Shown here in pieces: positions 9,391 through 57,586 of a DNA stretch of 64,000 nt. The stretch is from Tubulanus polymorphus (lineage: Eukaryota > Animalia > Nemertea): NCBI RefSeq assembly GCF_964204645.1, contig NC_134034.1, forward strand, positions 7,290,914-7,354,913, in the 5' to 3' direction. A model generated the notes under the pieces. The model ran no database searches, was not told the DNA's origin, and saw nothing but the letters and a program-made list of their open reading frames with translations. The first letter of the stretch is position 1, and every line of letters begins with the position of its first letter. The position numbers and the translations under genes are program-made.

Positions 9391-9393
9391 GTG

Positions 9394-9796
9394 AGTAATA
9401 GGGAATATGTTGTTTCAGATCAAAGGTCGAACGGTCGAGTTCATTAAAAACAAAACATTAAAAGTAATTTAAAACTATAATATATTTTCATAACCGTGTG
9501 CATTTTATATTATAACTAAATATTTATTCTAAGATATCAATAATTTTAAAAGCATATTGTATTAAATCAATTGGTCGCTCCACTTCGCTACCGCTCCGCT
9601 CCGCGACCAATTGATTTATTTACAATAAACACATTCATATAATCAAATATATTCAAATAATAATAATTATTCTATTATTCAACTGAAATACACACGGTTA
9701 TGAAAATATATTATAGTTTTAAATTACTTTTAATATTTGTTATTAATGAACTCGACCATTCAACCTTTAACCTGAAACAACATATTCCCTATTACT
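9394..9796. repeat. Left terminal imperfect palindrome of family A
   Basis: ~115-bp outer inverted arms AGTAATAGGG.../...CCCTATTACT; inner arms AAATCAATTGGTCGC/GCGACCAATTGATTT around a GC-rich CGCT-repeat loop. Confidence 0.85.
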
Positions 9797-9875
9797 CTCA
9801 AAATATTCATATATATGAATAAAATATAAATGAATAACTTCTAAAATCAATTTTAATAAAAAATTTAGTATTAAA

Positions 9876-10127
9876 ATGGAAGCAAATAAGTACTACTGCC
9901 CAACATGTAATATCAATATAGATAAATCCCAAAAAGCAAGACACAATAAAACTAAAACACATTTAGAGAATAAATTGAAATTAGAATATTTACAGTTATA
10001 TTCAGAACAGTTAACAAAGGCAAAGAAATTTATTGAATTATGGAATAATGATCCAAATAATGAACAATACGTTGAGGAATTTGATATCAAGGATCCGATG
10101 TTTATACTAGAACATGATTGTATTTGA
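9876..10127 (+). CDS. Chimeric small ORF: PolB N-terminal Zn finger plus HNH C-terminal tail
   Basis: First 38 aa identical to PolB start at 31384; tail LQLYSEQLTKAKKFIELWN matches end of ORF 11620-12285. Confidence 0.6.
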   Translation: MEANKYYCPTCNINIDKSQKARHNKTKTHLENKLKLEYLQLYSEQLTKAKKFIELWNNDPNNEQYVEEFDIKDPMFILEHDCI

Positions 10128-10210
10128 ACCTATATACATTCCATGTACAGAGCTATGGAATAAATCTATAAATTCACAGCTGTTACAGCCGTTACTATGA
10201 CGCCGAGACA

Positions 10211-10382
10211 TATGAGTCATAATACTGCAAACGCGTAGAACATTCTAGAAGGTGTACCGGAACTCTGAATAGAGATGACATGTCATAATCAGAAACGTGT
10301 AGAATATTCTAGAATAGGCGCGCCGGAACCAGATGACGTGGCATAATCAACGGCGTGTTCATTCTAGAAATCGCCCCGGAAA
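10211..10382 (+). promoter_or_regulatory. Triplicated ~60-bp enhancer-like unit (bZIP site, heat-shock element, ETS core)
   Basis: TGAGTCA/TGACATGTCA/TGACGTGG; aGAAcaTTCtaGAAg 10237-10251, aGAAtaTTCtaGAAt 10301-10315, partial third; CCGGAA ends each unit. Confidence 0.6.
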
Positions 10383-10916
10383 TGAACAGGCGCTGTAACA
10401 TTGTGCTCAGGATATTCTATCTATCGAAACGAAATTAGGAGTTTATAGTTTACAATTATAAATCTAAATGTAAGTACTGTTTTTTGTAGTTATTGGGGCT
10501 ATTAAATATGAAACCTTAAGATATATTTAAGTGTATTTAGTATATCTTTTAAATAGCTAGAGTTACCGCTAATATCTTTTAGATTAATAAAACGCCATAC
10601 GCATCAAGAAGTGATAGAGAAACTCAAGATACTCTTTCTGACTGAGGAATCAACAGCAATGGATATCGAACCAATAGAAATTAGCACACAAGAAACACAA
10701 GAATCACCAAAAGATCGACGAAGAAACTATATAAGAATTTCAAAAACATTAAGACTCCAATGATTAAGTTTAACATTTGTTGATGTAGTTAACTATTTAC
10801 CAGCAATTGAAAAAATGATTGTAATTATAAATTGTATTTATAGAAATCAAATGATGTATTGGAAGAAACGACTGAACAAATTGTATAATGTATTGTGTAA
10901 ATCTGTTTGGTGAATT

Positions 10917-11500
10917 TTTATGTTCAGTCGTTTCTATTTCTAGAATGAATATATAATTTTGATTAGCGCATGCGCATTGATCAAAAGCGCGCACGAATGC
11001 GCGGTTTGCTCAGTGGTATGATTCAGATATTTCATGTTCGGTCGTTTCTATTTACATAATGAATATATAATTATGATTAACGCATGCGCATTGAGCAAAA
11101 CCGGGCCTGAATGCGCGGTTTGCTCAGTTGTATGATTTAGATATTTCATGTTCGGTCGTTTCTATTTACATAATGAATATATAATTATGATTAACGCATG
11201 CGCATTGAGCAAAACCGGGCCTGAATGCGCGGTTTGCTCAGTTGTATGATTTAGATATTTCATGTCGGTTGTTTCTATTTACATAATGAATATATAATTA
11301 TGATTAACGCATGCGCATTAAGCAAAAGCGCGCATGAATGCGCGGTTTGCCTAATGCGAACACGTTTAGATATTTCATGTTGGTTGTTTCTATTTACATA
11401 ATTATATATTCATTATGTAAATATAATTATGATTAACGCATGCGCATTGATCCAAACCGGGCCTGAATGCGCGGTTTTGCTCAGTGGTATTATTTAGATA
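10917..11500. repeat. ~114-bp tandem repeat, about 5 copies
   Basis: Unit starts near 10917, 11031, 11145, 11259, 11374; each carries CGCATGCGCA and a GAGCAAA..CCG/CGGTTTGCTC-type inverted pair. Confidence 0.92.
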
Positions 11501-11619
11501 TCAAGGAATCGAAACTGACTTATCAAAAGCAGCGAGGAATGAAAAAGGATGACGTTGGTCGAAGAAATGGAAGAGGATTCTAAAATATTAACCAATTTAG
11601 TAAAAAATACGTATAATAA

Positions 11620-12285
11620 ATGGAACCAGAACAACCACAAACTATCAATATTACAAATAACACTGGTGGTGTTATAAATATATATTACAAGAAGTGTTCT
11701 AAATGTGAATTAGATAAATCATTAACAGAATTTAGTAAGCGTAAGATTAGCAAAGATGGTTTTCAATATTGCTGTAAAACTTGTACTAAACTATATACCA
11801 AACAATACCGAGAAGATAATAGAGAAGCTTATAATGATTATATGACAGAATATATGAGAGAAAGATATCAAACAGATCTTAATTTTAGATTGAAACAATG
11901 CTTAAGATCTAGATTAACACAATTATTCAACAAAGAAACGCATTCAGAAACACTATCTAATCTATTGGGTTGTTCAGATGAATTTCTCAAATCATGGATT
12001 ATATTTCTATTCGATGATAAAATGAATATAGATAATTATGGGGATTATTACCATATTGATCACGTGTTACCAATATCTAAATTTAACATGAATGATGAAT
12101 ACAATAAAAAACTTATTTGGGGTTGGAAGAATTTAAGACCTTTAGAAAAGAAAGAAAATCAAATCAAATCTAATAAACTAGATTTACAGTTATATTTAGA
12201 TCAACTGGATAAAGCAAAGACATTTGTTGAATTATGGAATTCAACACATAATGAACAATACGTTGAGTCTTTAATGAGTGGTTAA
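11620..12285 (+). CDS. HNH-type endonuclease with N-terminal CxxC zinc motifs
   Basis: KKCSKC...DG.QYCCKTC; HIDHVLP...NLRPL...EN..KSNK beta-beta-alpha-metal motif. Confidence 0.82.
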   Translation: MEPEQPQTINITNNTGGVINIYYKKCSKCELDKSLTEFSKRKISKDGFQYCCKTCTKLYTKQYREDNREAYNDYMTEYMRERYQTDLNFRLKQCLRSRLTQLFNKETHSETLSNLLGCSDEFLKSWIIFLFDDKMNIDNYGDYYHIDHVLPISKFNMNDEYNKKLIWGWKNLRPLEKKENQIKSNKLDLQLYLDQLDKAKTFVELWNSTHNEQYVESLMSG

Positions 12286-13502: not shown

Positions 13503-14608
13503 ATGAAAAAAGAACAATATTTAAGAGAGTTATATTATAACCCAGAAAGTGAAGTATCATATTCTAACGTTACAGAATTATGGGGTAAAATTAAATCTGA
13601 TAAGGAAAATGGCAATGGTGCCGTATGGCACCCACATGGTGATATAAAATATAGTGAATTAAAATCATGGTTACAAAATCAACCAACATATCAAATCCAC
13701 AAGAAAATGGATAAAAATTATTTAACAAGAAAAGTTATGGTTTCATATATTGATCAACAATGGCAAGCAGATTTAATAGACATGAAGAACTTAGAGGAAT
13801 ACAACAAAGGATATTTCTGGATACTGAATGTTATAGACATATTCAGTAGATACGCATGGTCAATTCCAATCAAAAATAAAACTGGAATAGAAGTAACAAA
13901 TGCTTTTAAATCTATATTTAAAGAAGCTATTCCAGATAAGATACAATTTGATGAAGGTAAGGAATTTTATAACAAACATTTCAAAAAAATATTATCTGAT
14001 AACGATGTAGATTATTTTTCAACACATTCAGATAAAAAAGCATCTATTATAGAAAGATTTAATAAAACATTGAAAACTAGAATGTGGAAATATTTTACTG
14101 CTAATGAAACATATAAATATATCGATGAGTCTATAAATATATCAGATGATTTAGTGAAAGGTTATAATAATTCTAAACATTCAAGTATTGGTATGAAACC
14201 TATACAAGCTAGAAAAGAAGATAATTCGGAAATAGTTTGGAATAATTTATATGGCGCATTTGTCACACATGATTTCGGTGAACCTAGATTCAAAATTGGA
14301 CAACACGTAAGAATATCTAAATATAGAAAAACATTTTATAAAGGTTATACTCCAAATTTTACAGAAGAAATATTCAAGATTAAAAAGATAATATTAACTA
14401 AACCATTTGTTTATAAATTAGAAGATCTAAAAGACGAAGAAATATTAGGTTATTTTTATGAACAAAAATTATCACTTGTACCAAATCCAGAGGAAATAGA
14501 ATACAAAATAGAAAACTCTTAAAGGAAAAAAGTATTCTTTGGTGAAATATAAAGGATACGATGATAAATTTAATGAATGGATTTTATCTTGTAAAATTAA
14601 ACGAATAA
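13503..14608 (+). CDS. Polinton retroviral-type integrase, C-terminal chromodomain frameshifted
   Basis: WQADLID, IDIFSRYAW, IQFDEGKEF, ERFNKTLK; chromo remnant LVKYKGYDDKFNEWI after 14522. Confidence 0.95.
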
Positions 14609-15220
14609 ATGGAAAAAGATTTATTTATATTTGAACCGCATAATATGTTAGTTACTGGAGTAACCAATTGTGGTAAAACACATTTCATATTAGATTTGTT
14701 AGAAACTATTTATAAGAATCATTTTGATAATATAATATTATTCTGTCCTACTTATGAAATGAATAAAACATATAATAGAGATATAGTTAAGATGAAAAAG
14801 TTTATTATATTAGATCCTAAAACAGTAAAAGAAAATTTAGATAATTGTATAAAAATAGCAATTGATACTTATAAAGGATCAAATACATTATTCATTATAG
14901 ATGATTGCGCAAATTTACATGATTCAAAAGTTAAAGAAAGTGAGTTATGTTATCTAGCTTTCTCTGGGAGACATTTTGGGATAACAACATGGGTTTTAAA
15001 TCAAAAATATAATTCAATTGTTAAAGACTTTAGGGAGAATATAAGATTTCTAGTTTTATTTTATAACAAAGATAGAAAATCTATGCAACAATCATTGGAA
15101 GAAAATCAAATTATACCTACTGAGTTACATGATGAATATATGAATAAATTAAAGAATAATAAAGGTTCAAAATTATTACTGAGATTACAATTTCCCTATG
15201 AATATAAATTTATAAAATAA
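14609..15220 (+). CDS. A32/FtsK-like DNA packaging ATPase
   Basis: Walker A GVTNCGKT, Walker B FIIDD, GRHFGI arginine-finger motif, conserved Q. Confidence 0.93.
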   Translation: MEKDLFIFEPHNMLVTGVTNCGKTHFILDLLETIYKNHFDNIILFCPTYEMNKTYNRDIVKMKKFIILDPKTVKENLDNCIKIAIDTYKGSNTLFIIDDCANLHDSKVKESELCYLAFSGRHFGITTWVLNQKYNSIVKDFRENIRFLVLFYNKDRKSMQQSLEENQIIPTELHDEYMNKLKNNKGSKLLLRLQFPYEYKFIK

Positions 15221-16323: not shown

Positions 16324-17572
16324 TTAATACATAACACTATCTAATTGTGAATTTACAATATTTAATTGCGCGTCAGATATAATATAAATGTGCATTTTGA
16401 AATTTAGACTTCCTTTTTTCTTTGTCATGAATAATTGTATTCCATCTTTAGTGTTTTGTAATTTTTTTCCAGAACCATGTAATGAATTATCCTCTGTTGT
16501 TCTAAAATCTAACCATAATGCATATTTATTACCGGTATAATAATCAATTTGATTAATGTTACAATTTTCAGATGATTTCACTTTTTCATTCATAAAATGT
16601 TTTCTAATTTCTGGCCATTGATCAATCATTCTCATTCCTTGACAAAATATTTTGTTTGCTATTCCTTCGATAGTTATTTCTACTTTTGTTATTTCAGGAT
16701 TATAATACTTATCAACTTGTATTGCACCATTAGAATATGTTGCAATGGTAAAAAATATTAATATACCTTTAATAGATCTTCTTGGGAAGTTAATATTCTC
16801 ATTAATTATTTCATCATTTGCATTAATAGTTACAGTTTTAAATTTATCAATATAATCATATAATAATAAAAATCCTTGATTGTATTTAGTTTGAATTATA
16901 CTTGCAATATTTTCATCAGTTACTGTATCATATTCTAAACATATATTCGATAATTTATAACTCATATCTTTAACAACGCTAGATAATACAATTTCATTTA
17001 CAGGAGCAAATGTTATTTCGAATATAACGTCTTCTTGAATTGCGTATTTATATAAAGGTGCATTATTATTTATCAATTCAAAGTCTCATGGAATTTTATA
17101 TTTGCTTCCATAAATCTTTTTTATCAAATTATCTGCGGTACGAGTTACTATTGCGTCATTAGCTCCTGATCTTAATTTATTTTGGTTTTCTGATTGGATG
17201 CCTTGAAATATCATATTATTTCTATTTTCTTTAGTTAACCATAAATCTTTATAATGCATAAATAGATTATAATCATCTAATGAGAAAACTGTTTCTGGAC
17301 CAATCTTTATAGTTAACTTTTTTAATCAAATATCTTCCAACATTATCAACAACATAATTAATATCATGACCTGTTAATTTTATATCAGCTGATAAATAAA
17401 TACTATTTGGAACATAAAAAGTATTTTGTGTTAATCTAGGAATTCTAACATATAAAGTTTCATCGGGATTAATATTAGAAGGGTTATGAGTAATTATATG
17501 ATGTGATCTTTCTGCTTTAATAGCATTAGATATTCTATGATTCTTCGAAGGATTGATATAACTCCCACTCAT
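16324..17572 (-). pseudogene. Major capsid protein (putative double jelly-roll), frameshift and stop
   Basis: ~415 codons, beta-rich; HNPSNINP..LYVRIPRL, LWLDFRT..D..LHGSG, YIISDAQLNI motifs recognised from invertebrate Polinton-like MCPs; further copies at 48250-48800 and 52631-53480. Confidence 0.75.
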
Positions 17573-17592: not shown

Positions 17593-19283
17593 TTATTTAT
17601 TTTTGATCATGTTTACTAACCCAAAAATAATTGCACTTACAACTGTAATTAAAAATAAAATAATATGTTCAGCAGCAAAGTTAAGAATATTCCCTGCAGA
17701 TTTTAAAACAAACCCAACAATCGATGCAATAACTCCAGGTAAAGCTGCAGCAGATTTTTTAGATAGTTCCCATAAATATTTTGCTAATTTTTTTAAACCA
17801 TCCTTAACTTTATCTTGTGTAGAATTATTATCTGGGGGTTTATCTGGTTTTTTTGGAGTAGGAGTAGATTTTAATGAATTTGATATTGCTAAACCAATTG
17901 TTGTAAATAACATAGTTACAGCTGTTAGAATTGAAAGAATTGTTATTCCTTCTAACTTAAATAATAATCTTATTCTATCTTTCAATGATAGTTTAGAATC
18001 TGATTTTATTATTAAATCTGTAAAATAACTTTTAATTTTTTGATATGATTAAGATCATATGATTTCAATAATATGTCTCTTTCTTCTTTTTGTAAATTTA
18101 TGTTATATTTTAAATCATCTATTTCTTTTTCTAAAGCTAACTTTCTGCTTTCATAATCAGGTTCATCTCTATTTAATTCTAATTGTTCTAATTTTTCATT
18201 TGCAATAGCTAATTCTTTTTCTAACATGGTTATTTAAGAAAATCTCATATTAATATTAGCATTTACATCGGCTGATTCTTGTATACCTTTAATTTCTCTA
18301 CGTGTTTGTTCAGGAAATGCTTCTAATTCTTCATCAGTTAATTTAAGTAATCCTTTTTCTAGTAAAGATTGTATTCGATTTATTCCAGTTTCAGTACCGG
18401 GCGTATCTAAAACACTAATCATATCTTCTTCAAATGAATTCATTGTATCCAGTAAGTTATCTAAACGTTTTCCTAATTGTAATTGACTTGAATCATTATC
18501 AATTGGTTGAGTGTCTCTTCTCGATGTTTCTGGTGTTGAAGATCTTAATCTATCTGATCGATCTCCATATTCTTCCATTTCTGGATCAACATCAGTAGGA
18601 TTTAAATTTGGATTTTTAAATGGTAAATATTTGTTAATATCAATTTTAGGAATTGGTTTTTCTTTATTTATTCTATCGATTGCATTCCATATAATTCTGA
18701 GAAATTCTCTACCACCTTTTGAACCTTCAATTGTAGATCTATATCGCATTCCAGGTTCAAAAATATTTTCTTGACCCATTCTAGATAATTGAATTGATAC
18801 ATTTTTGTTATTGAATTCAACATTATAATACCATGCATCATTTTTAAATTCTAAATTATTCATGAAAAATGGGTCATCTTTTAAAATTTGTTCTACAACA
18901 CCTTCTGAACCAATTTCATCTATTTCATCTTTTGGTAATAATACGTTAACAATTGTATATATTACTCTATTTTTCATTAATTTTAATTGATATTTCATAA
19001 GAGGATCAGTTGTATTTACTAATCTTTCCATTAAATCCTTTCTAGATGTTGCGGTTCTAATAACTAACCTTTCGGTAGCTGTCATATATTCTTTAAATTC
19101 TTTACGCGTTTCATAATCATAATCATCACCATCATCATCATAATCGGGTATATTTAAATTATTATTATATCCTGGCTCATAACCATCATTAAAACTTGTT
19201 TCACTAAAATCAGGTTGTTGTTCATCACTTATACCGGGTTCATCTAAAGGATCCAATGGAATATCTTCTCCACCTTCTGCCAT
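17593..19283 (-). pseudogene. Acidic/coiled-coil protein with C-terminal membrane helices (split into 3 ORFs)
   Basis: ORFs 18234-19283, 18012-18227, 17593-17985 contiguous; hydrophobic/amphipathic C-terminus. Confidence 0.65.
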
Positions 19284-19338
19284 TTACATAATAAAAAAAT
19301 TAAAATTTAAAATATAATATTCCTATAATATAGTATTT

Positions 19339-20658
19339 TCATGATTTATTATCATCATTTAGTTTAATTATTTCATGTTGAATAATATCAGTTTTTATAT
19401 CTTCTGATGTATCGTAATCTTTTATTTTAGAATCATTATTTAATTTAATATAATTTGTTTTAGTTTCAGTTGATTGAATGTGTTTTTTATTTTTTTCACC
19501 TTCCATTAATTTTGGAGCAGTAATAATCTTTTTATTTATATCATTTAATCCAAATGAATTATTTATTTTTGCAGTCTTGATTAAATTATTATAACCAATT
19601 ATATTTCCCATCTTTAGTACTAAATCATTAGAAATAATTAATAGATTAGGACCAATACAATAATTTAATCTAATATGTGATTTATCTAAATAATTTTGAT
19701 ATCTTACAATGTTTTCTGGAATCGATCTATTTTTATCATTATGAATTGAATCTTCAAATAATACTTTGAATTGTTTCTGCGTATCAAATGATGTATTCAA
19801 ATTTCCAATTATTGGGGATCTTGTTTCAACTTGCGCACCTAAAATACATATCAAATAAGTTCTAATAGATTGATTTATTCTTTGTATACCTGATTTTGTA
19901 AAACCTTCATTATTTTCTAAAATGAAATAAACCCAACCGTTATTGTTTTCTTGTTTTAAATTATCATAAAATTTCGGTAATTTATTGAAATTTAATGTTT
20001 CTAAATCCTTAGTTTCTATTTTACCATAACCTAATTTATTATTATAGATATTATAAAAACTATTAGATGGTATGGGAAGTGCACAATATTCTGCAATCTT
20101 TTTAGGGCAAGGAAGTGATCTTATTGTTCCAATTTTTGTTCTAAAATCAGAATTATTTATATCTATATTAAATTCATTACAAATTTTATAAAACTTTGAT
20201 AAATTAATATTATTATCTAATTCTTTAAAATACCTAGATCCTGGTAAAGCGCACTCTTATTCATTTAATATTATTCTGATTTGAAAGTATGTATGAAATC
20301 TAAATAAACTTTGAATTAATTTATATTTAGAATTATTCAAATGATCATTCCAACTAATTCCACAACCTGTTGTTGCACAATAAACAGCAAAATTTGATTG
20401 GTTCTGCCAATACTTCATATTAGATTTTAATAACCATTGTTTTTCATCTTTCAATTTTTTAAAATCAATTAAATATACATGAAATATATTTTCCATCTTT
20501 GCATTAAAATTATTAGTTTCAGTGACATAAATTTCTAAATTAGTTAATGAATCTAAAACTTCATTTCTATTTGTAATATCTTTATTAAAATCTATTGCTG
20601 GAATATTATATTTAATTGATTTATTATATTGGAAAGCTTTTGGAAAACTATCTACCAT
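19339..20658 (-). pseudogene. Conserved Polinton-like hypothetical protein
   Basis: WQNQ.NFAVYCATTGCGIS..HL...FRFH.Y motif; ORFs 20257-20658 and 19339-19854 flank a disrupted middle. Confidence 0.65.
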
Positions 20659-20674
20659 TTATATAATAAAAAAA

Positions 20675-21116: not shown

Positions 21117-21132
21117 TTATTTAGAAAAAAAA

Positions 21133-21558: not shown

Positions 21559-21582
21559 TTATTTAGCAAAAAAATTATGCAT

Positions 21583-22161: not shown

Positions 22162-22177
22162 TTATATAATGAAAAAA

Positions 22178-43980: not shown

Positions 43981-44065
43981 AGTAATTGTAAAAGTGGGGT
44001 TTCAGATCAGAGGTCGAGAGGTCGAGACACCACTCATCACCACAAATAATTTTTTTCCCTTATAA

Positions 44066-46182: not shown

Positions 46183-46209
46183 TTATATAACAAAAAAATT
46201 ATTTGTGAT

Positions 46210-46480
46210 GTTGCAACTACTAGAATTCAACTAGAATGTAACTAGAATTCAACTAGATTAACAAGCTAGTTGAAATATTGTTATTTTTGTTTATTTCTTG
46301 TTAAATCTAGTTGATTTTTGTTCCAACTACCAATAACTAGAATTCAACTAGAATGTAACTAGAATTAAACTAGATTAACAAGCTAGTTACAATATTGTTA
46401 AAATCTAGTTGAATTCTAGTTACAACTACCAATAACTAGAATTGTAACTAAATATGTAATTGATTAACAAACTAATTGAA
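46210..46480. repeat. AACTAG-rich short-period repeat/palindrome cluster
   Basis: Repeated AACTAGAATTC/AACTAGAATGT units and inverted CTAGTTG; shorter inverted copy ~55240-55410. Confidence 0.8.
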
Positions 46481-46481
46481 T

Positions 46482-47090
46482 TTAAATAAATTCATATTTA
46501 AATGGGTGTTGTAATCTAAATAGTAATTTTGATCTTTTAATATTTTTCAACTTATCCATATATTCATTATGTAAATCATGTGGAATAATATCATTTTCCT
46601 CAAGTGCATTTTTCATCGATTTTCTATCTTTATTGTAGAATAAAACTAGAAATCTAATGTTTTCTCTAAAGTCTTTAACAATTGAATTATATTTTTGATT
46701 TAAAACCCAAGTTGTTATCCCAAAATGTCTCCCGGAGAAAGCTAAATAACATAACTCACTTTCTCTAACTTTTGAATCATGTAAATTTGCGCAATCATCT
46801 ATGATAAATAATGTATTTGATCCTTTATGAATATCAATTGCTATTTTTATACAATTATCTAAATTTTCTTTTACTGTTTTAGGATCTAATATAATAAATT
46901 TATTATTTCTAGTAATATTTCTATCATAAGTTTGATTAAATTCATATGTTGGACAAAATAATACTATATTATCAAAATAGTTTTCATAAACAGTTTCTAA
47001 TAAATTTAATATAAAATAAGTTTTTCCACAATTTGTTACACCAGAAATTAACATATTATGAGGCTCAAATATGAATAATTCCTTATTCAT
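46482..47090 (-). CDS. Packaging ATPase (family B)
   Basis: GVTNCGKT, FIIDD, GRHFG; intact 202 aa. Confidence 0.93.
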   Translation of the reverse strand: MNKELFIFEPHNMLISGVTNCGKTYFILNLLETVYENYFDNIVLFCPTYEFNQTYDRNITRNNKFIILDPKTVKENLDNCIKIAIDIHKGSNTLFIIDDCANLHDSKVRESELCYLAFSGRHFGITTWVLNQKYNSIVKDFRENIRFLVLFYNKDRKSMKNALEENDIIPHDLHNEYMDKLKNIKRSKLLFRLQHPFKYEFI

Positions 47091-48218
47091 TTATATATTT
47101 TTAATTTTACTTGATAATATCCATTCATTGAATTTATCTGGCCATCCAACCCATTTTACTAAAGAATATTTTTTTCTTTTAATAGTTTTTGTTTTTAATA
47201 CTTTTTCAATTTTATATTCTTGTTCTAGATTTTCAGTAGTTAAACTTAATTCTTCTTCGTAAAAGTAGCCATCAACTTCTTCACCATCTAAATCTTCTAA
47301 TTTATAGACATATGGTTTTGTTGTTATTACCTTTTTTATTTTATATATTTCTCTAGTAAAATTTCGATCGTATCCTTTATCAAATATCTTTTTATACTTA
47401 GAAATTCTAACATTTTGACCAACTTTAAATTTATGTTCACCAAAATCATCTACAAGAAATACTCCATATAAATTATTCCAAACAATTTCAGCATTTTCAG
47501 GTTTTCTAGCATCAATAGGTTTCATTCCAATAGAAGAATGATAAGAATTATTATATCCTTCTATCAATTTTGGTAAAACATCAATCCATTTAAAAGTATT
47601 ATTTGCTGTAAAATATTTCCACATTCTTGTTCTTAATGTTCTATTAAATCGTTCAACAACTGCTGCTTTTTTATCTGATTTTGTTGAAAAATATTTAATA
47701 TTATGATTATCTAAGAGTTCATGAACAAGTGAATTATCAAACTCTTTTCCATCGTCAAATTGTATTTTTTCTGGTTTTAGTTTATCATCCGAAAGAAATT
47801 TTCTTAAAACATTTGATGTTTGTACAGCATCTTTTCTATAAAGTGGGAAGCTCCATACATAACGACTAAAAATATCAATTATATTCAATAACCACCAATA
47901 ATCATCATTATCTTTCTTAACATTTTTCATATCAATTAAATCTCCTTGCCACTGTTGATCTACATAACTTACCATAGTTTTACGAGTTTTATATTTTCTA
48001 ACAATTTTTTTATGTGTTGTATATGTTGGTTGTTCTAACATAAATTCATTTATGTCTTTATATTTAACAAAATTTTGTGGGATTATCTTATCTAATTTAT
48101 CTTGTTTTACTTTACGCCATATATTTTTAGTAGAAGAATAAGCAACCGAACTCTCAGGGTTGTAATATAAATTTCTTAAATATTTTTCTTTAGTATTAGG
48201 AGTTTTTTTACCTCCCAT
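47091..48218 (-). CDS. Integrase with chromodomain (family B), intact
   Basis: WQGDLID, QFDDGKEF, ERFNRTLR; YKIEKVL...LVKWVGWPDKFNEWI chromodomain. Confidence 0.95.
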   Translation of the reverse strand: MGGKKTPNTKEKYLRNLYYNPESSVAYSSTKNIWRKVKQDKLDKIIPQNFVKYKDINEFMLEQPTYTTHKKIVRKYKTRKTMVSYVDQQWQGDLIDMKNVKKDNDDYWWLLNIIDIFSRYVWSFPLYRKDAVQTSNVLRKFLSDDKLKPEKIQFDDGKEFDNSLVHELLDNHNIKYFSTKSDKKAAVVERFNRTLRTRMWKYFTANNTFKWIDVLPKLIEGYNNSYHSSIGMKPIDARKPENAEIVWNNLYGVFLVDDFGEHKFKVGQNVRISKYKKIFDKGYDRNFTREIYKIKKVITTKPYVYKLEDLDGEEVDGYFYEEELSLTTENLEQEYKIEKVLKTKTIKRKKYSLVKWVGWPDKFNEWILSSKIKNI

Positions 48219-48249
48219 TTATATATCGTTAATTTTAACTTTATATTTC

Positions 48250-48800
48250 TAATATTGAATACTATCTAACTGTGAATTTACAATATTTAATTGCGCGTCA
48301 GATATAATATAAATGTACATTTTGAAATTTTGTCTCCTTTTTTCTTTTTCATGAATAATTGTATTCCATCTTTAGTGTTCTGTAGTTTTTTTCCAGAACC
48401 ATGTAATGAATTATCCTCTGTTGTTCTAAAATCTAACCATAATGCATATTTATTACCGGTATAATAATCAATTTGATTAATATTACAATTTTCAAATGAT
48501 TTTACTTTTTCATTCATAAAATATTTTCTAATTTCTGGCCATTGATCTATCATTCTCATTCCTTGGCAAAATATTTTATTTGCTATTCCTTCGATAGTTA
48601 TTTCTACTTTTGTTATTTCAGGATTATAATAATTATCAACCTTTATTGCGCCATTAGAATATGTTGCAATGGTAAAAAATATTAATATACCTTTAATAGA
48701 TCTTCTTGGGAAGTTAATATTCTCATTAATTATTTCATCATTTGCATTAATAGTTACAGTTTTAAATTTATCAATATAATCATATAATAATGAAAATCCT
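48250..48800 (-). pseudogene. Major capsid C-terminal part (upstream genes deleted)
   Basis: Near-identical to 16324-16880; fused by deletion to a start at 48820. Confidence 0.75.
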
Positions 48801-48836
48801 TGCAATTTTTCATCTGCCATTTATATAACTAAAAAA

Positions 48837-49263
48837 TTAATAATTTATTAATTCTTTTAATAATTTATCTTGTTCTTCAACTGTTATATGGCCATTTAAA
48901 CTTATGATATAATCTAGAGTGTTCTTTAATTTATTAATTTCTTTTATATTAGTTTTAATTTTTTCTTTATTACTTTTTATATTTAATTTTGAACTTATAC
49001 TAGTTACAACACTTGAACTTAATCCTAACACACCGATTGATATAGCTAAAGGTGTTAATGGACTGAATATTGCTAGAAATGTTATTACAGAACTAATTGT
49101 AACCGAACCACTTATAATAAGATAATATATAATTTTACTTTTTAAGTATTATTTCTTTTTTATCTTTAAGTCACTTTCAAGTTCTAATATTTGTTTTTCT
49201 AAATATGTTTTTAATTTAGTTTTATTTATATCATGAGGAATAATATCAATATTATCTTCCATT
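48837..49263 (-). pseudogene. Two-TM small protein
   Basis: Homolog of 20675-21116. Confidence 0.65.
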
Positions 49264-49281
49264 TATTTAGAAAAAAAATTA

Positions 49282-49704
49282 CTAATTAGTAAACTTATAA
49301 GCAACAAATATAACAATAACAGTTCCACCTAAAATCCATATTATTTCATATTTCTGTTGTTCTTTACTTGGGGTATGATAATCTGATAATTTGGGTTTGT
49401 ATAGATGTAATTTTTCTTTATTTGTTACCGCGTTATATAAACTCATTGCATCATCAACTGATTGAAAATCTCTATGTGAAATCTTCTGATCATATAATTC
49501 TTTGTTAATATAATCCATATAGTTTTGCCTCTTTTCTCTATATTCTTCTGCTGCTTTATTGTATTTCTCTAATGCTAAGTTATGTCTTCTTTGTTCTCCT
49601 AATGAACTATTTTTATCAATATGTTTAAATAAATATCCACCACCAGTAAATGCCAAAGCGTTAACAATTGCTGATCCTATAATAGTTATAATTGCAGAAG
49701 CCAT
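49282..49704 (-). CDS. Conserved small membrane/virion protein
   Basis: Near-identical to 21133-21558. Confidence 0.8.
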   Translation of the reverse strand: MASAIITIIGSAIVNALAFTGGGYLFKHIDKNSSLGEQRRHNLALEKYNKAAEEYREKRQNYMDYINKELYDQKISHRDFQSVDDAMSLYNAVTNKEKLHLYKPKLSDYHTPSKEQQKYEIIWILGGTVIVIFVAYKFTN

Positions 49705-49952
49705 TTATTTAGTAAAAAAATTATGCATTTATATGGGAGGAATATATTTTTGTTTTTCCAAATAATCAATAGTTAAATTAGATAAAGTAATTGCTAATGT
49801 TAACTAAAAATATCATTTATATCAAATCTATCAACATTAACACTTCCCATTTTGAATATTTTTTTTAATACCATTGAATAACCAACAGTTCCAACTGATA
49901 GTAATGCTCCATTATATAATGCAGTTATTATCCACTTATTATCACTCATTTA

Positions 49953-50306
49953 TTAATCAAAAAAATTACTATCTTCAAAATATTTAGTTATCTTAGTGAT
50001 GATTAATTCAACATTTATTTTATTACTAGTTTCATTTGTATATATTTCAATTATTATTTTTCTAATATCATCAATGATAAAATCTTCATCTAATTCATAA
50101 AATCTTAAAGATTCTCTAATTAAATTAGTAATCTTTTCTACATTTAAAGTTTCTTTATCTATTGTTGTTTTATACTCAAATGTTGTTTCATTAGAAAATG
50201 CAATATTTTTAATATGTGTAATTACATCATTAATGTTAAATTTCATTTCTTTCTCACGTTTAAAATCAAATCCAAAACATATACTCGGTCCAACAGTTAT
50301 ATTCAT
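49953..50306 (-). CDS. Hypothetical protein
   Basis: Homolog of 21805-22161. Confidence 0.72.
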   Translation of the reverse strand: MNITVGPSICFGFDFKREKEMKFNINDVITHIKNIAFSNETTFEYKTTIDKETLNVEKITNLIRESLRFYELDEDFIIDDIRKIIIEIYTNETSNKINVELIITKITKYFEDSNFFD

Positions 50307-50322
50307 TTATATAGTGAAAAAA

Positions 50323-51081
50323 TTACTCTTTACATCTTATAACTAATTCATAAATTACAGGAAAGTTATTCAAATCAATTAAATAACCATTATGATTTCT
50401 TATTTCTTATTTAAAATTATTGAAATGTGGAATACAAGGTTTGAAATCACATTCAGTTAAATTATAATTTATTTAAGTTCCAAATTGTTTGACATTTTTT
50501 AATGGTAAAATATTTAATAAACCAGAATTACAAATTGTATCTTTAGTTGCTTCAAATGTTTTTGTTGGGTCAATCAAATTGCAATAAATATAAAAGTGTG
50601 TAAAAGGTATTAAGTTTGATCTACCTTCTGCGTGTGCTGTAACAATATTTGGGTTAATTCCTAACAGTTTAGCTAAAGGTTTTCTTACTGTAAATTTAAA
50701 TTGTTCGTTATTATCTAACCTAATCTTTATTTTATTAGAACTATCACTTTTTAAAATTCTAATATTAAATTTAGAATCACTTCCTAATTTAGCTCGAGCT
50801 TTTCTATTAATTTCTTGTGCTAATGTATCTAAATTATATAATCCTGGTTTTAAATATATAAAATACCATTCATTCATTTTTTTGTAAAAGATTGAAAAAA
50901 TTAAATGTTCTAGACTTTTATCCGATATATTGTAAAATGAGTTACATAAACTTATATTTACTAATTTTAAATCAACACAATTCTTAAATTCTCTATCTAA
51001 TTGTACTAGTAAATTAATTGATTTATAATTTGTAAGTTTTCTAGAATCAACAAATATTCTGTGTTCTTTTAATTCTACCAT
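50323..51081 (-). pseudogene. Putative penton (family B), premature stop at 50473
   Basis: Homolog of 22178-22945. Confidence 0.68.
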
Positions 51082-51149
51082 TATTTATAACATAAAAAAA
51101 TTACCGCTCATCACTAAAAATTAATTTTAATAAAATTTTTCCTAAATAA

Positions 51150-52472
51150 ATGGATGAGAAGATAGCATGCGAAATTAGTGGTGAACTTCTAAGAAAAAGT
51201 AATATGGCTCGATATATGAAAAAACATGATGAAAATTATAAACCCCCTAAAATAAACTTTCCAAAATGTAATAGATTATTCTCAAGAAATTATGTTAAAA
51301 AACATTCAGAGAAGTGTAGAATTAATGGTGCAACGGCTAATGTTGATAGTAATGAAAGTAATAGTAATTGCTGAAGTTGAACCTGAAGTTATTTGGAAAA
51401 GACCTTTCTTATTCTATGATAAGGATAATATAAAAGATCATTTCTGTGAGCCTTGTCGAATAAAATATAACCCTGAAAATATAGAAGATTGGGAGAATCA
51501 TCAATTTCGTAAAGTACATATAGATAAAAGTTCTAATAAATTTGAAACTGAATTTAATGAAAGAAAAAATAATTTATTAGAAAAAATAAAATATGAGAAA
51601 ACGTTACCAGATAATAAAGAAACAGTTGAAAAGTTAGAAAAACAATATAATGAATTAACAAGAAAAACATATTATTGTAAATATTGTAAATTGATTATTA
51701 CAACAAGTAATTCAAATCTACATAATAGAACAATAAAACATAAAGAAAACGTAAGAAAATACCAAGAGCTTAATGAAGATCTATTACCAATAAATTATAA
51801 ACAAAAATGCCCACAATGTATTTATGCGACCTTAAGACAAGAAGGTACTGTGTTATTTTGTGTTGATTGTGGATGGCAAAAGAATTTATGGGGTGAAGAA
51901 AAAACTAGAAATTTTCTCATAGATCCAAAATTAAATTATCTAGATGAAATTTTTAAAATATTTTCTATAGAAGATCATACACCAGAATATATGCAATGGC
52001 TTGAAAAAATGAAAATAATAGAAAATAAAAATGGTGAAATAACTAAAAAAGACATTATAAATACAATTATTCCATCAACATTTAACACAAAACAAAAGAA
52101 AATGTATTTATATATATTATTTAACGATTATTATGAAAAACCTAAATTAACAGAAGAAGATACGGAAAATATAAAAAAAAAATATTCAAACAAATATTAA
52201 TGTATCATTTGGAAAATAGAATAACAGATTCAATAAATTATGAATTCTTTTTAAATAAGATAAATAAGATTGTAAATTATTTAAACCTAGATATTATAAT
52301 TCCATTTGACGAATTAACAAACAAAAAGAAACAAAGAGAGCGAGATGAAATGTGGAACAAGATAGAACTTTATTTAAATGAAAAAAATGGAATGGAAGAA
52401 GAACCTAAACAATTAAATGAAAATGAAGAAGCCAGTAGTGATTTCGAGTTTGATGATATAGATCCATTTTAA
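51150..52472 (+). pseudogene. Multi-Zn-finger protein with C-terminal VLTF3-like (poxvirus A2-type late transcription factor) domain, split by frameshifts
   Basis: CPQC...EG...CVDCG ribbon; KLNYLDEIF; INYEFFLNKI...KKKQRERDEMWNKI resembles the VLTF3 C-terminus. Confidence 0.6.
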
Positions 52473-52630
52473 TAAATAACCATAAGGTAATGTTTTTATA
52501 CCATCATCTAAAATATGCCTTTTATCATCAAATGGATTTAAACTAGTTTTTTCAACTTCATTAATGTACATCTCATGATCTTCTGATCTTAAACAATTCA
52601 TTTTGTGTTTCATTACAATTGATTTATATA
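52449..52630 (-). pseudogene. PolB extreme C-terminus (family B)
   Basis: KTSLNPFDDKRHILDDGIKTLPYG; matches 6213-6370. Confidence 0.88.
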
Positions 52631-53480
52631 TTGGAAGATATTTGATTAAAAAATTAATTATAAAGATTGGTCCGGAAACAGTTTTCTCATTAGATGATTA
52701 TAATTTATTCATGCATTATAAAGATTTATGATTAACTAAAGAAAATAGAAATGATATGATATTTCAAGGAATCCAATCAGAAAACCAAAATAAATTAAGA
52801 TCAGAAGCTAATAATGCAGTAGTAACTAATAACGTAGATAATTTGATTAAAAAGATTTATGGAAGCAAATATAAAATTCCATTAGACTTTGAATTGATAA
52901 ATAACAATGCACCTTTATATAAATATGCAATTCAAGAAGATATTATTTTTGAGATAACATTTGCTCCTGTAAATGAAATTGTATTATCTAGCGTTGTTAA
53001 AGATATGAATTATAAATTATCGAATATATGTTTAGAATATAACACAGTAACTAATGAAAATATTGCTAGCACAATTCAAACTGAATACAATCAAGGATTT
53101 TCAATCCTGAAATAACAAAAGTAGAAATAACTATCGAAGGAATAGCAAATAAAATATTTTGTCAAGGAATGAGAATGATTGATCAATGGCCAGAAATTAG
53201 AAAACATTTTATGAATGAAAAAGTAAAATCATTTGAAAATTGTAACATTAATCAAATTGATTTTTATACCGGTAATAAATATGCATTATGGTTAGATTTT
53301 AGAACAACAGAGGATAATTCATTACATGGTTCTGGAAAAAAACTACAAAACACTAAAGATGGAATACAATTATTCATGAAAAAGAAAAAAGGAGACAAAA
53401 ATTTCAAAATGCATATTTATATTATATCTGACGCCCAATTAAATATTGTAAATTCACAATTAGATAGTATTCAATATTAG
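52631..53480 (+). pseudogene. Major capsid fragment of the inverted arm
   Basis: Homolog of 16324-17340 with internal deletion near 53100. Confidence 0.75.
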
Positions 53481-53509
53481 AAAGATAAAGTTAAAATTAA
53501 GGATATATA

Positions 53510-54642
53510 AAAGGGCGGTAAAAAAACTCCTAATACTAAAGAACAATATTTAAGAAATTTATATTACAACCCTGAGAGTTCGGTTGCTTATTCTTCTACT
53601 AAAAATATATGGCGTAAAGTAAAACAAGATAAATTAGATAAGATAATCCAACAAAATTTAGTTAAATATAAAGATATAAATGAATTTATGTTAGAACAAC
53701 CAACATATACAACACATAAAAAAATTGTTAGAAAATATAAAACTCGTAAAACTATGGTAAGTTATGTAGATCAACAGTGGCAAGGAGATTTAATTGATAT
53801 GAAAAATGTTAAGAAAGATAATGATGATTATTGGTGGTTATTGAATATAATTGATATTTTTAGTCGTTATGTATGGAGCTTCCCACTTTATAGAAAAGAT
53901 GCTGTACAAACATCAAATGTTTTAAGAAAATTTCTTTCGGATGATAAACTAAAACCAGAAAAAATACAATTTGATGATGGAAAAGAGTTTGATAATTCAC
54001 TTGTCATGAACTCATGTTGAAGATAATCATAATATTAAATATTTTTCAACAAAATCGGATAAAAAAGCAGCAGTTGTTGAACGATTTAATAGAACATTAA
54101 GAACAAGAATGTGGAAATATTTTACAGCAAATAATACTTTTAAATGGATTGATGTTTTACCAAAATTTATAGAAGGATATAATAATTCTTATCATTCTTC
54201 TATTGGAATGAAACCTATTGATGCTAGAAAACCTGAAAATGCTGAAATTGTTTGGAATAATTTATATGGAGCATTTCTTGAAGATGATTTTGGTGAACCT
54301 AAATTTAAAGTTGGTCAAAATGTTAGAATTTCTAAGTATAAAAAGATATTTGATAAAGGATACGATCGAAATTTTACTAGAGAAATATATAAAATAAAAA
54401 AGGTAATAACAACAAAACCATATGTCTATAAATTAGAAGATTTAGATGGTGAAGAAGTTGATGGCTACTTTTACGAAGAAGAATTAAGTTTAACTACTGA
54501 AAATCTAGAACAAGAATATAAAATTGAAAAAGTATTAAAAACAAAAACTATTAAAAGAAAAAAATATTCTTTAGTAAAATGGGTTGGATGGTCAGATAAA
54601 TTCAATGAATGGATATTATCAAGTAAAATTAAAAATATATAA
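53510..54642 (+). pseudogene. Integrase, inverted arm (frameshift ~54010)
   Basis: Inverted copy of 47091-48218. Confidence 0.9.
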
Positions 54643-55233
54643 ATGAATAAGGAATTATTCATATTTGAGCCTCATAATATGTTAATTTCTGGTGTAACAA
54701 ATTGTGGAAAAACTTATTTTATATTAAATTTATTAGAAACTGTTTATGAAAACTATTTTGATAATATAGTATTATTTTGTCCAACATATGAATTTAATCA
54801 AACTTATGATAGAAATATTACTAGGAATAATAGATTTATTATATTAGATCCTAAAACAGTAAAAGAAAATTTAGATAATTGTATTAAAATAGCAATTGAT
54901 ATTTATAAAGGATCAAATACATTATTCATTATAGATGATTGTGCTAATCTACATGATTCAAAAGTTAGAGAAAGTGAGTTGTGCTATTTAGCTTGGGATA
55001 ACAACTTGGGTTTTAAATCAAAAATATAATTCAATTGTTAAAGACTTTAGAGAAAGCATTAGATTTCTAGTTTTATTCTACAATAAAGATAGAAAATCGA
55101 TGAAAAATGCACTTGAGGAAAATGATATTATTCCACATGATTTACATAATGAATATATGGATAAGTTGAAAAATATTAAAAGATCAAAATTACTATTTAG
55201 ATTACAACACCCATTTAAATATGAATTTATTTA
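54643..55233 (+). pseudogene. Packaging ATPase, inverted arm (deletion removes GRH motif)
   Basis: Inverted copy of 46482-47090. Confidence 0.9.
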
Positions 55234-55441
55234 AATTTAATTAGTTTGTTAATCAATTACATATTTAGTTACATTCTAGTTGAATTCTAGTTATTGGTAG
55301 TTGGAACAAAAATCAACTAGATTTAACAAGAAATAAACAAAAATAACAATATTTCAACTAGCTTGTTAATCTAGTTGAATTCTAGTTACATTCTAGTTGA
55401 ATTCTAGTTGCAACATCACAACTAATTTTTTTGTTATATAA

Positions 55442-56047
55442 ATGGTAGGTGAAAAGAAAATAAAATCTAAAAATGGTGATGTTCCAATTGAAAAAACTTT
55501 AGATGATTTAGGAATAACAGAAAACAAATTAATTCCAGATGATGGTGTTTTGAATAATGTTACAACAAATAATAATTATGAATATTATCTTTACTGTAAA
55601 CATCAAATAGAAATATTAATAGCATCTGGAAAATGGAAAAATTTTGTCGGTAAAGATTTAACTTATAATGAATTAGATACAATGAAATCAGATGAAATTA
55701 TTAGATTATTTAAGATTTATGAAGCCGCGAGAACAGCTAGAATTAATTACGCGATATCAGAAAATGTAGTAAAAGGTTATAGTAAATTAATTAATTATAT
55801 ACTACCAATTGAAGATGAAAAAAGATTATATTCCGATTTAAAAAATGATTATTTAGTTATGACTGAATTAAATAAATGGATTGGATATTTATCGTTTCAA
55901 TTAGGAGGATTTATGACATTATTATCAACTGGGGTTATAACATTTTCAAATATTGAAAGTAAAAATATTTCTATAATAAATGAGCGAGGTGAAAGAAGTG
56001 AAGGAATTAACTGTGAAGAAAAAACCGAGAACTCAGAAACAAATTGA
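55442..56047 (+). CDS. Conserved hypothetical protein, inverted arm
   Basis: Inverted copy of 45592-46182. Confidence 0.72.
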   Translation: MVGEKKIKSKNGDVPIEKTLDDLGITENKLIPDDGVLNNVTTNNNYEYYLYCKHQIEILIASGKWKNFVGKDLTYNELDTMKSDEIIRLFKIYEAARTARINYAISENVVKGYSKLINYILPIEDEKRLYSDLKNDYLVMTELNKWIGYLSFQLGGFMTLLSTGVITFSNIESKNISIINERGERSEGINCEEKTENSETN

Positions 56048-57586
56048 ATGGTCTCGGCAATTAGGAATTAAACCACAAGAATATAAAAAAAGCTGTAAAA
56101 GAAAAAATAAATAATAAAAATGTTAATAAAAATGGTGAAAATATTGTTATTTCTACTCCTTCTGATAATAGAATATTTGATAAATATTTATATTTTACAG
56201 TTGGATTTGTAATTGTATTCATTTGATTGGGTGTAATTGGTATAAGAAATCAAATAAAATTCATGATATTAATAATTCTGAAACAACTGCTATCAAAAAT
56301 GAAAATACTTCTGAAATTCCAAAATTGATAATAAAGAAAATGGATTAATATTTTAGAAAAAAGCAAAAAAAATAATTTTTTTAATTAATTGAATATTAAT
56401 TGAATATCTCACTACTTTTGTCTATCACTGTGTGGGTGCCGTTTATGGCACCATCTACGCGGAGCAATTAAATTGTCCAGATAAGTCATTTCGGATTCTA
56501 GATATTAATCATTTCCATTAATTTATTTTTTTAAATTTAATGAAAAATTTCTAAATCATGATGGCCGTCTTCATTTTTTCCATGATAGATTATTTTAAAT
56601 CCTTCTAAATCTTTTAATTGCTCTGTACTCAATGAACCCCATTTATCAGGTAAAAATACTTTAAATTCTCGCGATGTACTAACATTACAGTAGCTTAAAT
56701 TAGCTGATACTTTCTCTCCATATTTAGTTTTTATCTTTTCTAATTTCAATATTTTATGTTCAATTTCTTTTGTAACATCAACTAACTTTTTTATTTCAAA
56801 TTGTTTTTTTGCTGGTTTTATTCTGTTATTTATTGTTGCTAAGAATGCTTTCTATCTCCCATTTTTAAGGAAAACAAATTACTTGTGGTGATGAGTGGGG
56901 ATTACTTCCCCTGTATATAACAAACACGCTATTAACCGTTCTCACCCAAGCCTCACAGCATCTATTTATCCGGGTACAGTTAACACACGCGCAGCTGTTG
57001 TTACGCGCACTCACTGTTTATGTGTGTCACAATTTTACTGCGTAATATTTCTAAAATTTCAATTGTATCTTTTATTTCTAGTGAATCAATATAATTTCTA
57101 ACATTTTCCATGTAAGGTTTATTTGATTTATCAATATATTTTTTACAATATGTACAATGATATTGATTTTCATTAACATCAATTTGTTCTGTCTTATTCT
57201 CTTCCATTTATAAGGAAAAAAAATTATTTGTGGTGATGAGTGGGGATTACTTCCCCTTGTATATAACAAGCACGCTATTAACCGTTCTCACCCAAGCCTC
57301 ACAGCATCTATTTATCTGGGTACAGTTGACACGCAATCACTGTACTACAGTAATAGCACACGCGTTAATAACCGTTCTCAGTAGAGACTCACTGTATCGT
57401 TCAATCCACGCGCAGATGTTGTTACGCGCACTCACTGTATATGTGTATCACAGAGCAATCGTCCGTTCTCACTAGAGCCTAGCTGTGATGAGTGGTGTCT
57501 CATACTCAATTGAATTATTACTTGTGGTGATGAGTGGTGTCTCGCCCTCTCGCCCTCTGATCTGAAACCCCACTTTTACAATTACT

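Follow-up and report, generated by a model that had tools for sequence, protein, structure and literature searches.

Poxvirus-late-type TAAATG motifs at the gene starts of decayed Polintons in the nemertean Tubulanus polymorphus

A genomic stretch of Tubulanus polymorphus (Nemertea) carries decayed integrated Polintons encoding a protein-primed polymerase, an integrase, an A32 ATPase, and a double-jelly-roll capsid, and nearly all of their genes start with a TAAATG motif that is built in two parts and resembles, at the level of sequence, the vaccinia late promoter. As the starts are poxvirus-style and a motif scan showed no RNA polymerase gene, we infer, with moderate confidence, that active forms of the elements would rely for transcription on a still unseen poxvirus-type large DNA virus that co-infects the cell and supplies its cytoplasmic RNA polymerase. 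The Polinton gene content itself is known; new here is the motif at the gene starts, for which a literature search found no published report in Polintons.

Architecture and gene content of the elements

The window, that is the whole stretch analysed, comprises 64,000 nt (GCF_964204645.1, NC_134034.1:7,290,914-7,354,913, forward strand), and the elements described here lie mainly at positions 9391-57586. Element A, a decayed Polinton, was given a start at 9391 in the preliminary description; contigs of run X4 depart from the window at 9393, and the element occupies 9394-31638. Both of its ends begin with AGTAAT, and no target-site duplication is present between them. The left end forms a terminal fold-back (9394-9797), an imperfect palindrome of about 400 nt (−113 kcal/mol, z −25), the right end one of about 176 nt with a different loop (31463-31638; z −9.4), and five tandem repeats of 114 bp each with GCATGCGC palindromes are located at 10916-11501. 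Element B (43981-57586) is a Polinton that has undergone rearrangement, with arms that duplicate each other in inverted orientation; five of six flanking bases match, a possible target-site duplication. Between the two elements, a fragment at 39744-42284 preserves remnants of an integrase and of an HNH gene, another terminal fold-back, the third one (40565-40680), and a second copy of a host-type unit described below. Fragment E0 (4550-6220, plus strand), outside 9391-57586, holds a second broken VLTF3-like gene that is split by a retroelement piece.

The copies are decayed as described before: besides stops and frame breaks, they show deleted and duplicated stretches and an insertion of 2.2 kb. 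Also, the viral genes are very AT-rich (21-27% GC compared to 35-47% in the flanks). The proposed division into families A and B is not a clean one, since both elements are mosaics with a capsid module 91-94% alike and an integrase/ATPase module about 74% alike. The family is very numerous in the DNA of this organism, with 17,908 contig records aligning to 15 kb; such a copy number is easily explained by nuclear spread and is a point against dependence on a helper. Run X5, presumed to be RNA, yielded two short pieces.

On the plus strand, element A encodes an HNH/endonuclease VII-type nuclease with a TAAATG start (11620-12285; PHROG phrog_1035, E 3.5e-19), an rve integrase broken near its C-terminus (13503-14590; E 3e-9), and an A32-type packaging ATPase, again with a TAAATG start (14609-15220; Pox_A32, E 5e-12). 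The nuclease is present as claimed, but it matches phage-type endonuclease VII and is not NCLDV-specific, and it was rejected as a marker of helper dependence. The major capsid gene (16324-17572, minus strand) has a TAAATG start, a frame break, and a stop. An intact homologue (P0001) was modelled as a double jelly roll (pLDDT 87) that matched solved capsids of this fold with E 7e-16, and in the structure comparison of the 415-aa capsid, NCLDV capsids rank above virophage capsids, the latter sharing about 10% identity. There follows, on the minus strand, a run of conserved genes (small, membrane, and unknown ones; 17593-23316), in which all eight curated starts are TAAATG and which includes a candidate minor capsid gene (22178-22945); the B copy gave a weak DUF5901 match. 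The protein-primed DNA polymerase B gene (23346-31384, minus strand; PF03175, E 2e-9), without intein, is split by the insertion of 2.2 kb (24300-26530) and by a duplicated stretch of 1.95 kb. In element B, integrase (rve and chromodomain, rve above cutoff) and ATPase are open and have TAAATG starts (46482-48218, minus strand). No Pfam match to a minor capsid or a Ulp1-type protease was obtained among 52 ORFs of these deletion-bearing copies, and no Ulp1/adenain protease was detected in the window elements. The claim that the elements lack an RNA polymerase of their own agrees with a six-frame scan for a set of RNA polymerase motifs, which gave none. A deoxynucleoside kinase in two TAAATG-positive relatives was counted in favour of a helper.

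The gene content is thus that of a member of the Polintoviricetes: PF03175 polymerase, rve integrase with chromodomain, A32 ATPase, and double-jelly-roll capsid. Ends of the AG..CT type and inverted repeats are present too, alongside the missing target-site duplication of A and the match in five of six bases of B. On the PF03175 match, the elements may belong to the Alpha class, which is placed with Group 2. The term virophage-like holds as a description of the proposed lifestyle, but not of the genes.

One part of the left arm differs from the viral genes. The GC-richer block at 10128-10760 (plus strand) has an ORF remnant, a conserved splice-donor-like GTAAGT, and host-type, Pol II-like motifs (TTCTAGAA, 3 compared to 0.01 expected; CCGGAA, 3 compared to 0.14 expected). 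A second copy (41680-42284) is 69% alike. Judged by these motifs, the block is likely a nuclear-expressed, spliced unit; the viral genes are intronless in general, with this unit as one likely exception. Its Pol II-driven, spliced appearance was counted against a helper.

The TAAATG start motif

TAAATG was found at 26 of 29 curated gene starts (14/16 in element A, 12/13 in element B), and the three exceptions are the near-variants TAAAATG, TAAGATG, and TAAATAATG. As background, 110 of 1566 ATGs (7%) in the same viral DNA are preceded in this way, gene starts counted in, which bears out the earlier observation of TAAATG on nearly all viral genes. Across related elements, the motif stands at 49 of 55 starts anchored by homology, compared to 9 of 104 in other capsid relatives, and in a GC-matched subset (28-45%) 23 of 27 compared to 9 of 64, the loci in both comparisons not being independent. 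Starts of flanking transposon ORFs do not carry it (0/13), and in 12 IMG/VR viral contigs with polymerase relatives and a GC content of 19-42% it occurs at 6 of 118 starts. TAAATG is thus not enriched in the flanking host transposons, the other capsid relatives, or the equally AT-rich polymerase-related contigs; it is confined to certain lineages and is not an artefact of AT composition, an explanation rejected because equally AT-rich controls lack it. A count of 0/29 for AT-rich negative loci was not used, since positive loci were excluded from it by construction.

The motif consists of an A/T core, a near-fixed T at −12, a spacer, and TAAATG followed by a purine. Of the 61 positive starts, 93% have the T at −12 and 59 have a purine at +4. 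Divergent gene pairs of positive loci are tight, with 15-30 nt between the ATGs in 8 of 10 cases, which was counted in favour of a helper; such spacing is also seen in some pairs of negative relatives (5/15 at 30 nt or less), which was counted against one.

The distribution of the motif was mapped on a quick mixture tree made up solely of 50 capsid rows, namely the window piece and those 49 of the 83 loci whose capsid ORF reached at least 230 aa. The TAAATG label required 4 changes compared to 16.1 for shuffles. The clade of the window has 15 rows (SH-aLRT 99), 14 of them motif-positive; a group of four loci (L038, L045, L042, L051) was joined to this clade at 83 in a simpler tree, but not in the mixture tree. 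ATPase and capsid scans of viral contigs as well as a terminal-motif search yielded zero loci. Two further signals did not separate positive from negative lineages and were therefore not used as support: the poly(A) signal AATAAA (167 compared to 173.5 expected and 66 compared to 74.8 expected), whose similar counts in both groups were held against a helper, and TTTTTNT, depleted in positive and negative lineages alike (23 compared to 44.7 expected; 39 compared to 53.3).

The VLTF3-like gene

Element B contains a VLTF3-like gene (51150-52472, plus strand) that has a TAAATG start and is broken at two places, near 51300 and near 52180; it encodes zinc fingers, a zinc ribbon, and a cyclin/TFIIB-like helical domain. 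Against the VLTF3 profile PF04947, its pieces reached 18.7-19.1 bits at a cutoff of 25, and intact homologues gave no match at E 0.1. A word search for protein homologues found none, a full HMMER search two real ones; P0169, a third candidate, was a repeat artefact and was dropped. The model of homologue P0168 (pLDDT 62) had late-transcription-factor entries in 12 of the 50 top BFVD rows (best E 6e-4) and middling similarity to cyclin/TFIIB chains (Z 5-6.4). The VLTF3-like identity is supported by this predicted fold of zinc ribbon and cyclin/TFIIB-like helical domain, which was counted in favour of a helper. The gene is also carried by the TAAATG-negative relatives L015, L016, L019, and L060, and element A in its present state has the motif and no VLTF3 gene; both were counted against a helper. 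The VLTF3-like factor is thus present, as previously described, but occurs with and without the motif, so that it was rejected as a converging sign of helper dependence. VLTF3 has already been reported in a subgroup of coral polintoviruses (among PMC8502044, PMC11131425, and 10.64898/2026.06.19.733378), while PMC5499653, apparently the source of the coral study for VLTF3 in Polintons, does not contain "VLTF" in its main text.

Proposed transcription by a helper and alternative explanations

In the proposed mechanism, the helper polymerase would initiate in the AAA of TAAAT, slip, and add a poly(A) leader. The T at −3 runs opposite to the usual eukaryotic start context, and slippage at TAAAT would account for it as well as for the missing room for a 5′-untranslated region. 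The VLTF3-like factor may help to recruit or redirect the helper polymerase; the element would copy its DNA with its own polymerase, package it in its own capsid, and insert it via its own integrase, and the host-type unit might, speculatively, act in a nuclear phase. Transcription by a helper, as inferred in the preliminary description, withstands the DNA-level comparison of motif frequencies, but the listed features VLTF3, HNH, and intein do not converge on it. Antiviral defence as a shown function was rejected, as nothing here supports it.

The strongest alternative, which we consider unlikely, is that of nuclear viruses or transposons acting autonomously: Pol II, redirected by their own TFIIB-like VLTF3, would read a poxvirus-like initiator acquired by descent or convergence, a helper being unneeded. 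The occurrence of the VLTF3-like factor in positive and negative lineages alike, the high copy number, the Pol II-like unit in the arm, and the fact that no helper virus was seen speak for this, whereas element A has the motif without the factor, AATAAA is frequent on coding strands (3.9 per kb) and undepleted in relatives, and where the initiator runs into the start codon, a leader can arise only by slippage, as documented for the enzymes of poxviruses and yeast plasmids (PMC6211774).

Less probable still is a cytoplasmic helper other than a poxvirus that uses a TAAAT-like initiator, whether a linear plasmid encoding an RNA polymerase or a large DNA virus, asfarvirus-like or of another kind. 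TAAAN initiators with slippage in yeast cytoplasmic linear plasmids (PMC6211774) imply that the helper need not be a poxvirus, a TAAAT motif lies upstream of ranavirus polymerase genes (PMC5294985), and sister lineages have TATA near the ATG (38/73 compared to 20 expected), similar to late promoters of ASFV; however, poxvirus late genes are the ones described as combining a TAAATG that exactly overlaps the start codon with a T core upstream of it (PMC11980589, PMC5294985).

That TAAATG is a translation feature, by stop-start coupling or an AT-rich start context, is very improbable: TAA is a stop codon, and in 3 of 26 cases the start comes immediately after the stop of a preceding ORF with at least 100 codons, but in 23 of 26 it does not, for which reason coupling was rejected, and the motif on both genes of divergent pairs, the motif-free AT-rich controls, the T at −3, and the fixed T at −12, which coupling does not predict, all argue against it.

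Comparison with known systems

Vaccinia late and intermediate promoters share with the motif TAAAT(G/A) over the start codon and an upstream T- or A-rich core (PMC11980589, PMC5294985). Both parts are present here as a likeness of sequence, with the fixed T 9 nt upstream of TAAAT and not 10 nt as conserved in vaccinia, a difference counted against a helper. Polintons/Mavericks (Polintoviricetes; Alpha adintoviruses, Group 2 type; PMC8502044, PMC11131425, 10.64898/2026.06.19.733378) have the same PF03175 polymerase, rve integrase, A32 ATPase, double-jelly-roll capsid, and AGT..ACT ends; distinct here are the poxvirus-late-type motif, fold-back termini, the undetected protease, and, in one subfamily, a polymerase with an intein-like insert. 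The word "promoter" is absent from the main texts of these three studies.

Mavirus and the EMALEs of Cafeteria (PMC10945749) are likewise integrated, encode polymerase and integrase, and carry the late promoter motif of their helper, which varies by type and from which the helper was predicted. They belong to the virophage class, with a protist host, a mimivirid helper, and experimentally established dependence, whereas the present elements likely reside in an animal and their dependence is deduced. Polinton-like viruses present in entomopoxvirus occlusion bodies (PMC11296320) are also proposed poxvirus hyperparasites in an animal, but are about 12 kb in size, have an adenovirus-type protease and capsids described as highly divergent, with no integrase found in those that bear PolB; the main text does not mention promoter, TAAAT, VLTF3, or intein.

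More broadly, and only tentatively, animal Group-2-type Polintons could be integrated hyperparasites of cytoplasmic large DNA viruses rather than nuclear transposons, with TAAATG lineages tuned to poxvirus-type and TATA-at-start lineages to asfarvirus-type enzymes. On that view, the promoters of these elements would preserve, in invertebrate genomes, traces of poxvirus relatives not yet discovered. A helper-specific promoter, if confirmed, would bear on how animal Polintons are expressed and why their virions are unseen, and would help to forecast which element is woken by which large DNA virus. It would bring a widespread class of elements in animal genomes under a virophage-like lifestyle and point to poxvirus-type viruses not yet known.

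An intein-like insert in a third fragment

The intein assigned to the elements as NCLDV-type lies outside 9391-57586, in the E0 polymerase. The C-terminal part of this polymerase (6216-6669, minus strand) begins at the Thr of the motif-C equivalent, and the insert (6670 to about 8049, minus strand) is located at the site equivalent to the YGD/TDS junction, with Asn as its last residue followed by Thr. It contains two motifs that we take to be LAGLIDADG-like, is broken, has a 596-bp internal duplication, and lacks the N-terminal junction in this copy. Searches of its broken pieces gave no match to intein profiles, intein homologues, or NCLDV homologues, and the NCLDV designation could not be substantiated. 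The insertion site, terminal Asn, and downstream Thr are shared with the Mimivirus PolB pol-c intein (PMC549080), whereas here a protein-primed polymerase carries the insert, in a broken copy without detected sequence homology to a known intein. Under the hyperparasite reading, it would be a relic of life in the factory of the helper, now residing in an animal genome. As inteins were absent from metazoan genomes in a 2018 survey (PMC5784728), an intein in an animal-borne Polinton polymerase would, if real, be of importance.

TAAATG at gene starts

Gene starts in the window were picked by homology to intact relatives. TAAATG was present at 14 of 16 starts in element A and at 12 of 13 in element B, the remaining three being near-variants, so that the preliminary description was right to place it on nearly all viral genes. 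Since A and B share orthologues, these 29 starts are not independent cases; for element A alone the binomial p is 7e-15. As background, TAAATG occurred at 110 of 1566 ATGs in viral DNA and at 27 of 872 in the flanks.

A capsid alignment search yielded 80 metagenome and 3 genome-collection loci, in which the motif was all-or-none by element. Positive loci (GC 20-44%) carried it at 14/15 (L001), 7/7 (L002), 5/5 (L038) and 6/6 (L045) starts, negative loci at 0/12 (L036), 0/14 (L015) and 0/23 (L032). The motif was not equally enriched in flanking host transposons or other elements: it was absent from the starts of all 13 flanking transposon ORFs, and among homology-anchored starts, whose counts are inflated by near-duplicate contigs, it was found at 49/55 in 18 loci grouped by a first tree vs 9/104 in the rest (23/27 vs 9/64 within 28-45% GC). 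In 12 IMG/VR contigs fetched via the polymerase (19-42% GC), 6 of 118 starts had TAAATG (per-locus sums); three of these relatives (L084, L085, L086) show TAAAA right before most start codons, plus an upstream T-run. A mixture-model capsid tree placed the window inside a clade of 15 rows (SH-aLRT 99), 14 of them positive, with further positive lineages standing apart. On the capsid tree, the motif label changed 4 times vs 16.1 times with shuffled labels.

Putative promoter architecture and proposed mode of transcription

A profile of 61 positive starts, themselves selected on TAAATG, revealed a second element upstream, consisting of A at -18/-17, a T-run and T at -12 (93%); in 59 of the starts, position +4 is a purine. 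According to the parts available of PMC11980589 and PMC5294985, TAAAT(G/A) overlaps the start codon in vaccinia late promoters and a conserved T lies 10 nt upstream, whereas the fixed T lies 9 nt upstream in these elements. Poly(A) leaders through slippage are described, in the accessible text of PMC6211774, for TAAAT in vaccinia and TAAAN in yeast cytoplasmic plasmids. Divergent gene pairs were tightly spaced in both groups, with at most 30 nt between ATGs in 8 of 10 pairs from positive loci and in 5 of 15 pairs from negative loci. A set of RNA polymerase motifs gave no hit in the window, in agreement with the claim that the elements have no such enzyme. We somewhat favor transcription by the poxvirus-type polymerase of a helper virus, a reading suggested by sequence. 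An antiviral defence role, proposed by analogy, would be doubtful; the copies in the window are broken. The available part of PMC11296320 proposes poxvirus hyperparasites of another lineage and contains no promoter analysis. A literature search of mainly open-access main texts returned no report of TAAATG-type promoters or inteins in Polintons.

Autonomous elements using Pol II together with their own VLTF3 are an unlikely alternative, on which two features bear. First, a GC-richer block in the left arm of A (10128-10760; second copy 41680-42284, 69% alike) contains a short ORF and a host-type motif cluster, presumably heat-shock-like, ETS-like and CRE-like. The motifs and a splice-donor-like site kept in both copies favor some expression in the nucleus and speak against the assertion that all genes are intronless. 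The block was not found among 95 fetched loci. Second, two VLTF3-like C-terminal pieces match PF04947 below cutoff (E ~1e-3), while the intact homologues P0167 and P0168 gave no match at E 0.1. With a predicted model of P0168 (pLDDT 62, from an 8-row alignment), late-transcription-factor entries, including cowpox and an entomopoxvirus, made up 12 of the best 50 rows in BFVD, and cyclin/TFIIB folds were matched with Z 5-6.4. The window gene is thus probably VLTF3-like, as proposed, but it lends no specific support to a helper: such genes also occur in motif-negative L015, L016, L019 and L060, and have been reported in coral polintoviruses (PMC11131425, part of the text). It is no marker of TAAATG lineages.

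A cytoplasmic helper other than the poxvirus type appears quite improbable for the TAAATG elements; the motif-negative relatives, which are not proven nuclear controls, bear on it. After 9 near-duplicate loci were dropped, TATA lay within 22 nt of the ATG at 38 of 73 motif-negative starts (L015, L016, L019, L036, L037, L058, L064, L069 and others) vs 20.0 +/- 3.5 by shuffling, and in the adjacent upstream interval at 11 of 73. This distance is too short for a Pol II TATA box. As far as the consulted source text goes, the arrangement resembles the late initiator of the asfarvirus ASFV. In EMALEs, motifs differ by type, and the accessible part of PMC10945749 describes a response to CroV only in the type with the CroV motif. 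Finally, TAAATG as a translation feature is very improbable; only 3 of 26 positive starts come directly after the stop codon of an ORF of at least 100 codons.

Anatomy of the window

Polinton-derived sequence makes up four AT-rich blocks, namely fragment E0 (4550-8049), element A (9394-31638), a further fragment (39744-42284) and element B (43981-57586). Remnants of ordinary host transposons (Gypsy, BEL/Pao-type with DUF1759 and DUF5641, Harbinger-type, SWIM) lie at 654-2908, 32539-35190, 35994-38800, 57587-58603 and 60356-62627; from this content of the flanks (GC 35-47%), the window is likely animal DNA. Pfam matches above cutoff were rve integrase, Pox_A32 ATPase and DNA_pol_B_2. A search with a stretch of the capsid gene that is still open retrieved 226 homologues, and the predicted model of the intact homologue P0001 (pLDDT 87) matches solved double-jelly-roll capsids. 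Capsid homologues P0008 and P0124-P0131 and loci L081-L083 appear in the databases as parts of Bartonella draft assemblies and prokaryotic MAGs, which were likely contaminated with animal-host DNA. The reported HNH nuclease gene is present, its match being phage endonuclease VII; four of the 83 loci, each of them positive, contain a homologue. Two positive relatives carry a deoxynucleoside kinase (L001:10343-10981, L008:2898-3380). In L058 (160-1462), VRR-NUC and Bro-N genes adjoin a TAAATG-negative Polinton capsid.

Stops, frame breaks and deletions, together with a 2.2 kb insertion and large duplications, have broken the copies, whose decay had been noted. Two elements do exist, but A and B are mosaics rather than clean families, their integrase/ATPase modules being ~74% and their capsid modules 91-94% alike. 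The element family is very numerous in this organism: 17,908 contig records of run X1 (public DNA contigs) align to 15 kb, and summed contig depth, which is not a copy number, exceeds that of the flanks by one to two orders of magnitude. Family A ends are imperfect fold-backs of 115-400 nt with different loops (9394-9797, 31463-31638, 40565-40680, 29557-29775), resembling an opened terminal hairpin. All A and B ends have a short repeated core in common, located ~25-45 nt inward of the tip. In B, an array of 11-bp ACTAG palindromic repeats separates the ATPase from the gene that follows (46190-46460 and 55240-55410).

Intein-like insert of E0

The polymerase C-terminus of E0 starts with the motif-C Thr. 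Before it comes an insert of 1.38 kb or more of unrelated coding DNA, of which 596 bp are internally duplicated and whose last residue is Asn. The insert contains what we take to be two LAGLIDADG-like motifs and an intein C-terminal block; profile and database searches with the broken insert pieces gave no match. In element A and in seven polymerase relatives from the fetched loci, the site is continuous and has no insert; an eighth match, L042, was left out, not being a shown polymerase homologue. The site corresponds to the Mimivirus pol-c site (PMC549080, text available in part). The insert is likely an intein, as described earlier, its NCLDV type being putative; it lies outside 9391-57586, to which it had been assigned. 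Inteins are absent from metazoan genomes according to the accessible part of a 2018 survey (PMC5784728). In this organism the insert exists in multiple copies, and at 8049 other copies continue differently.
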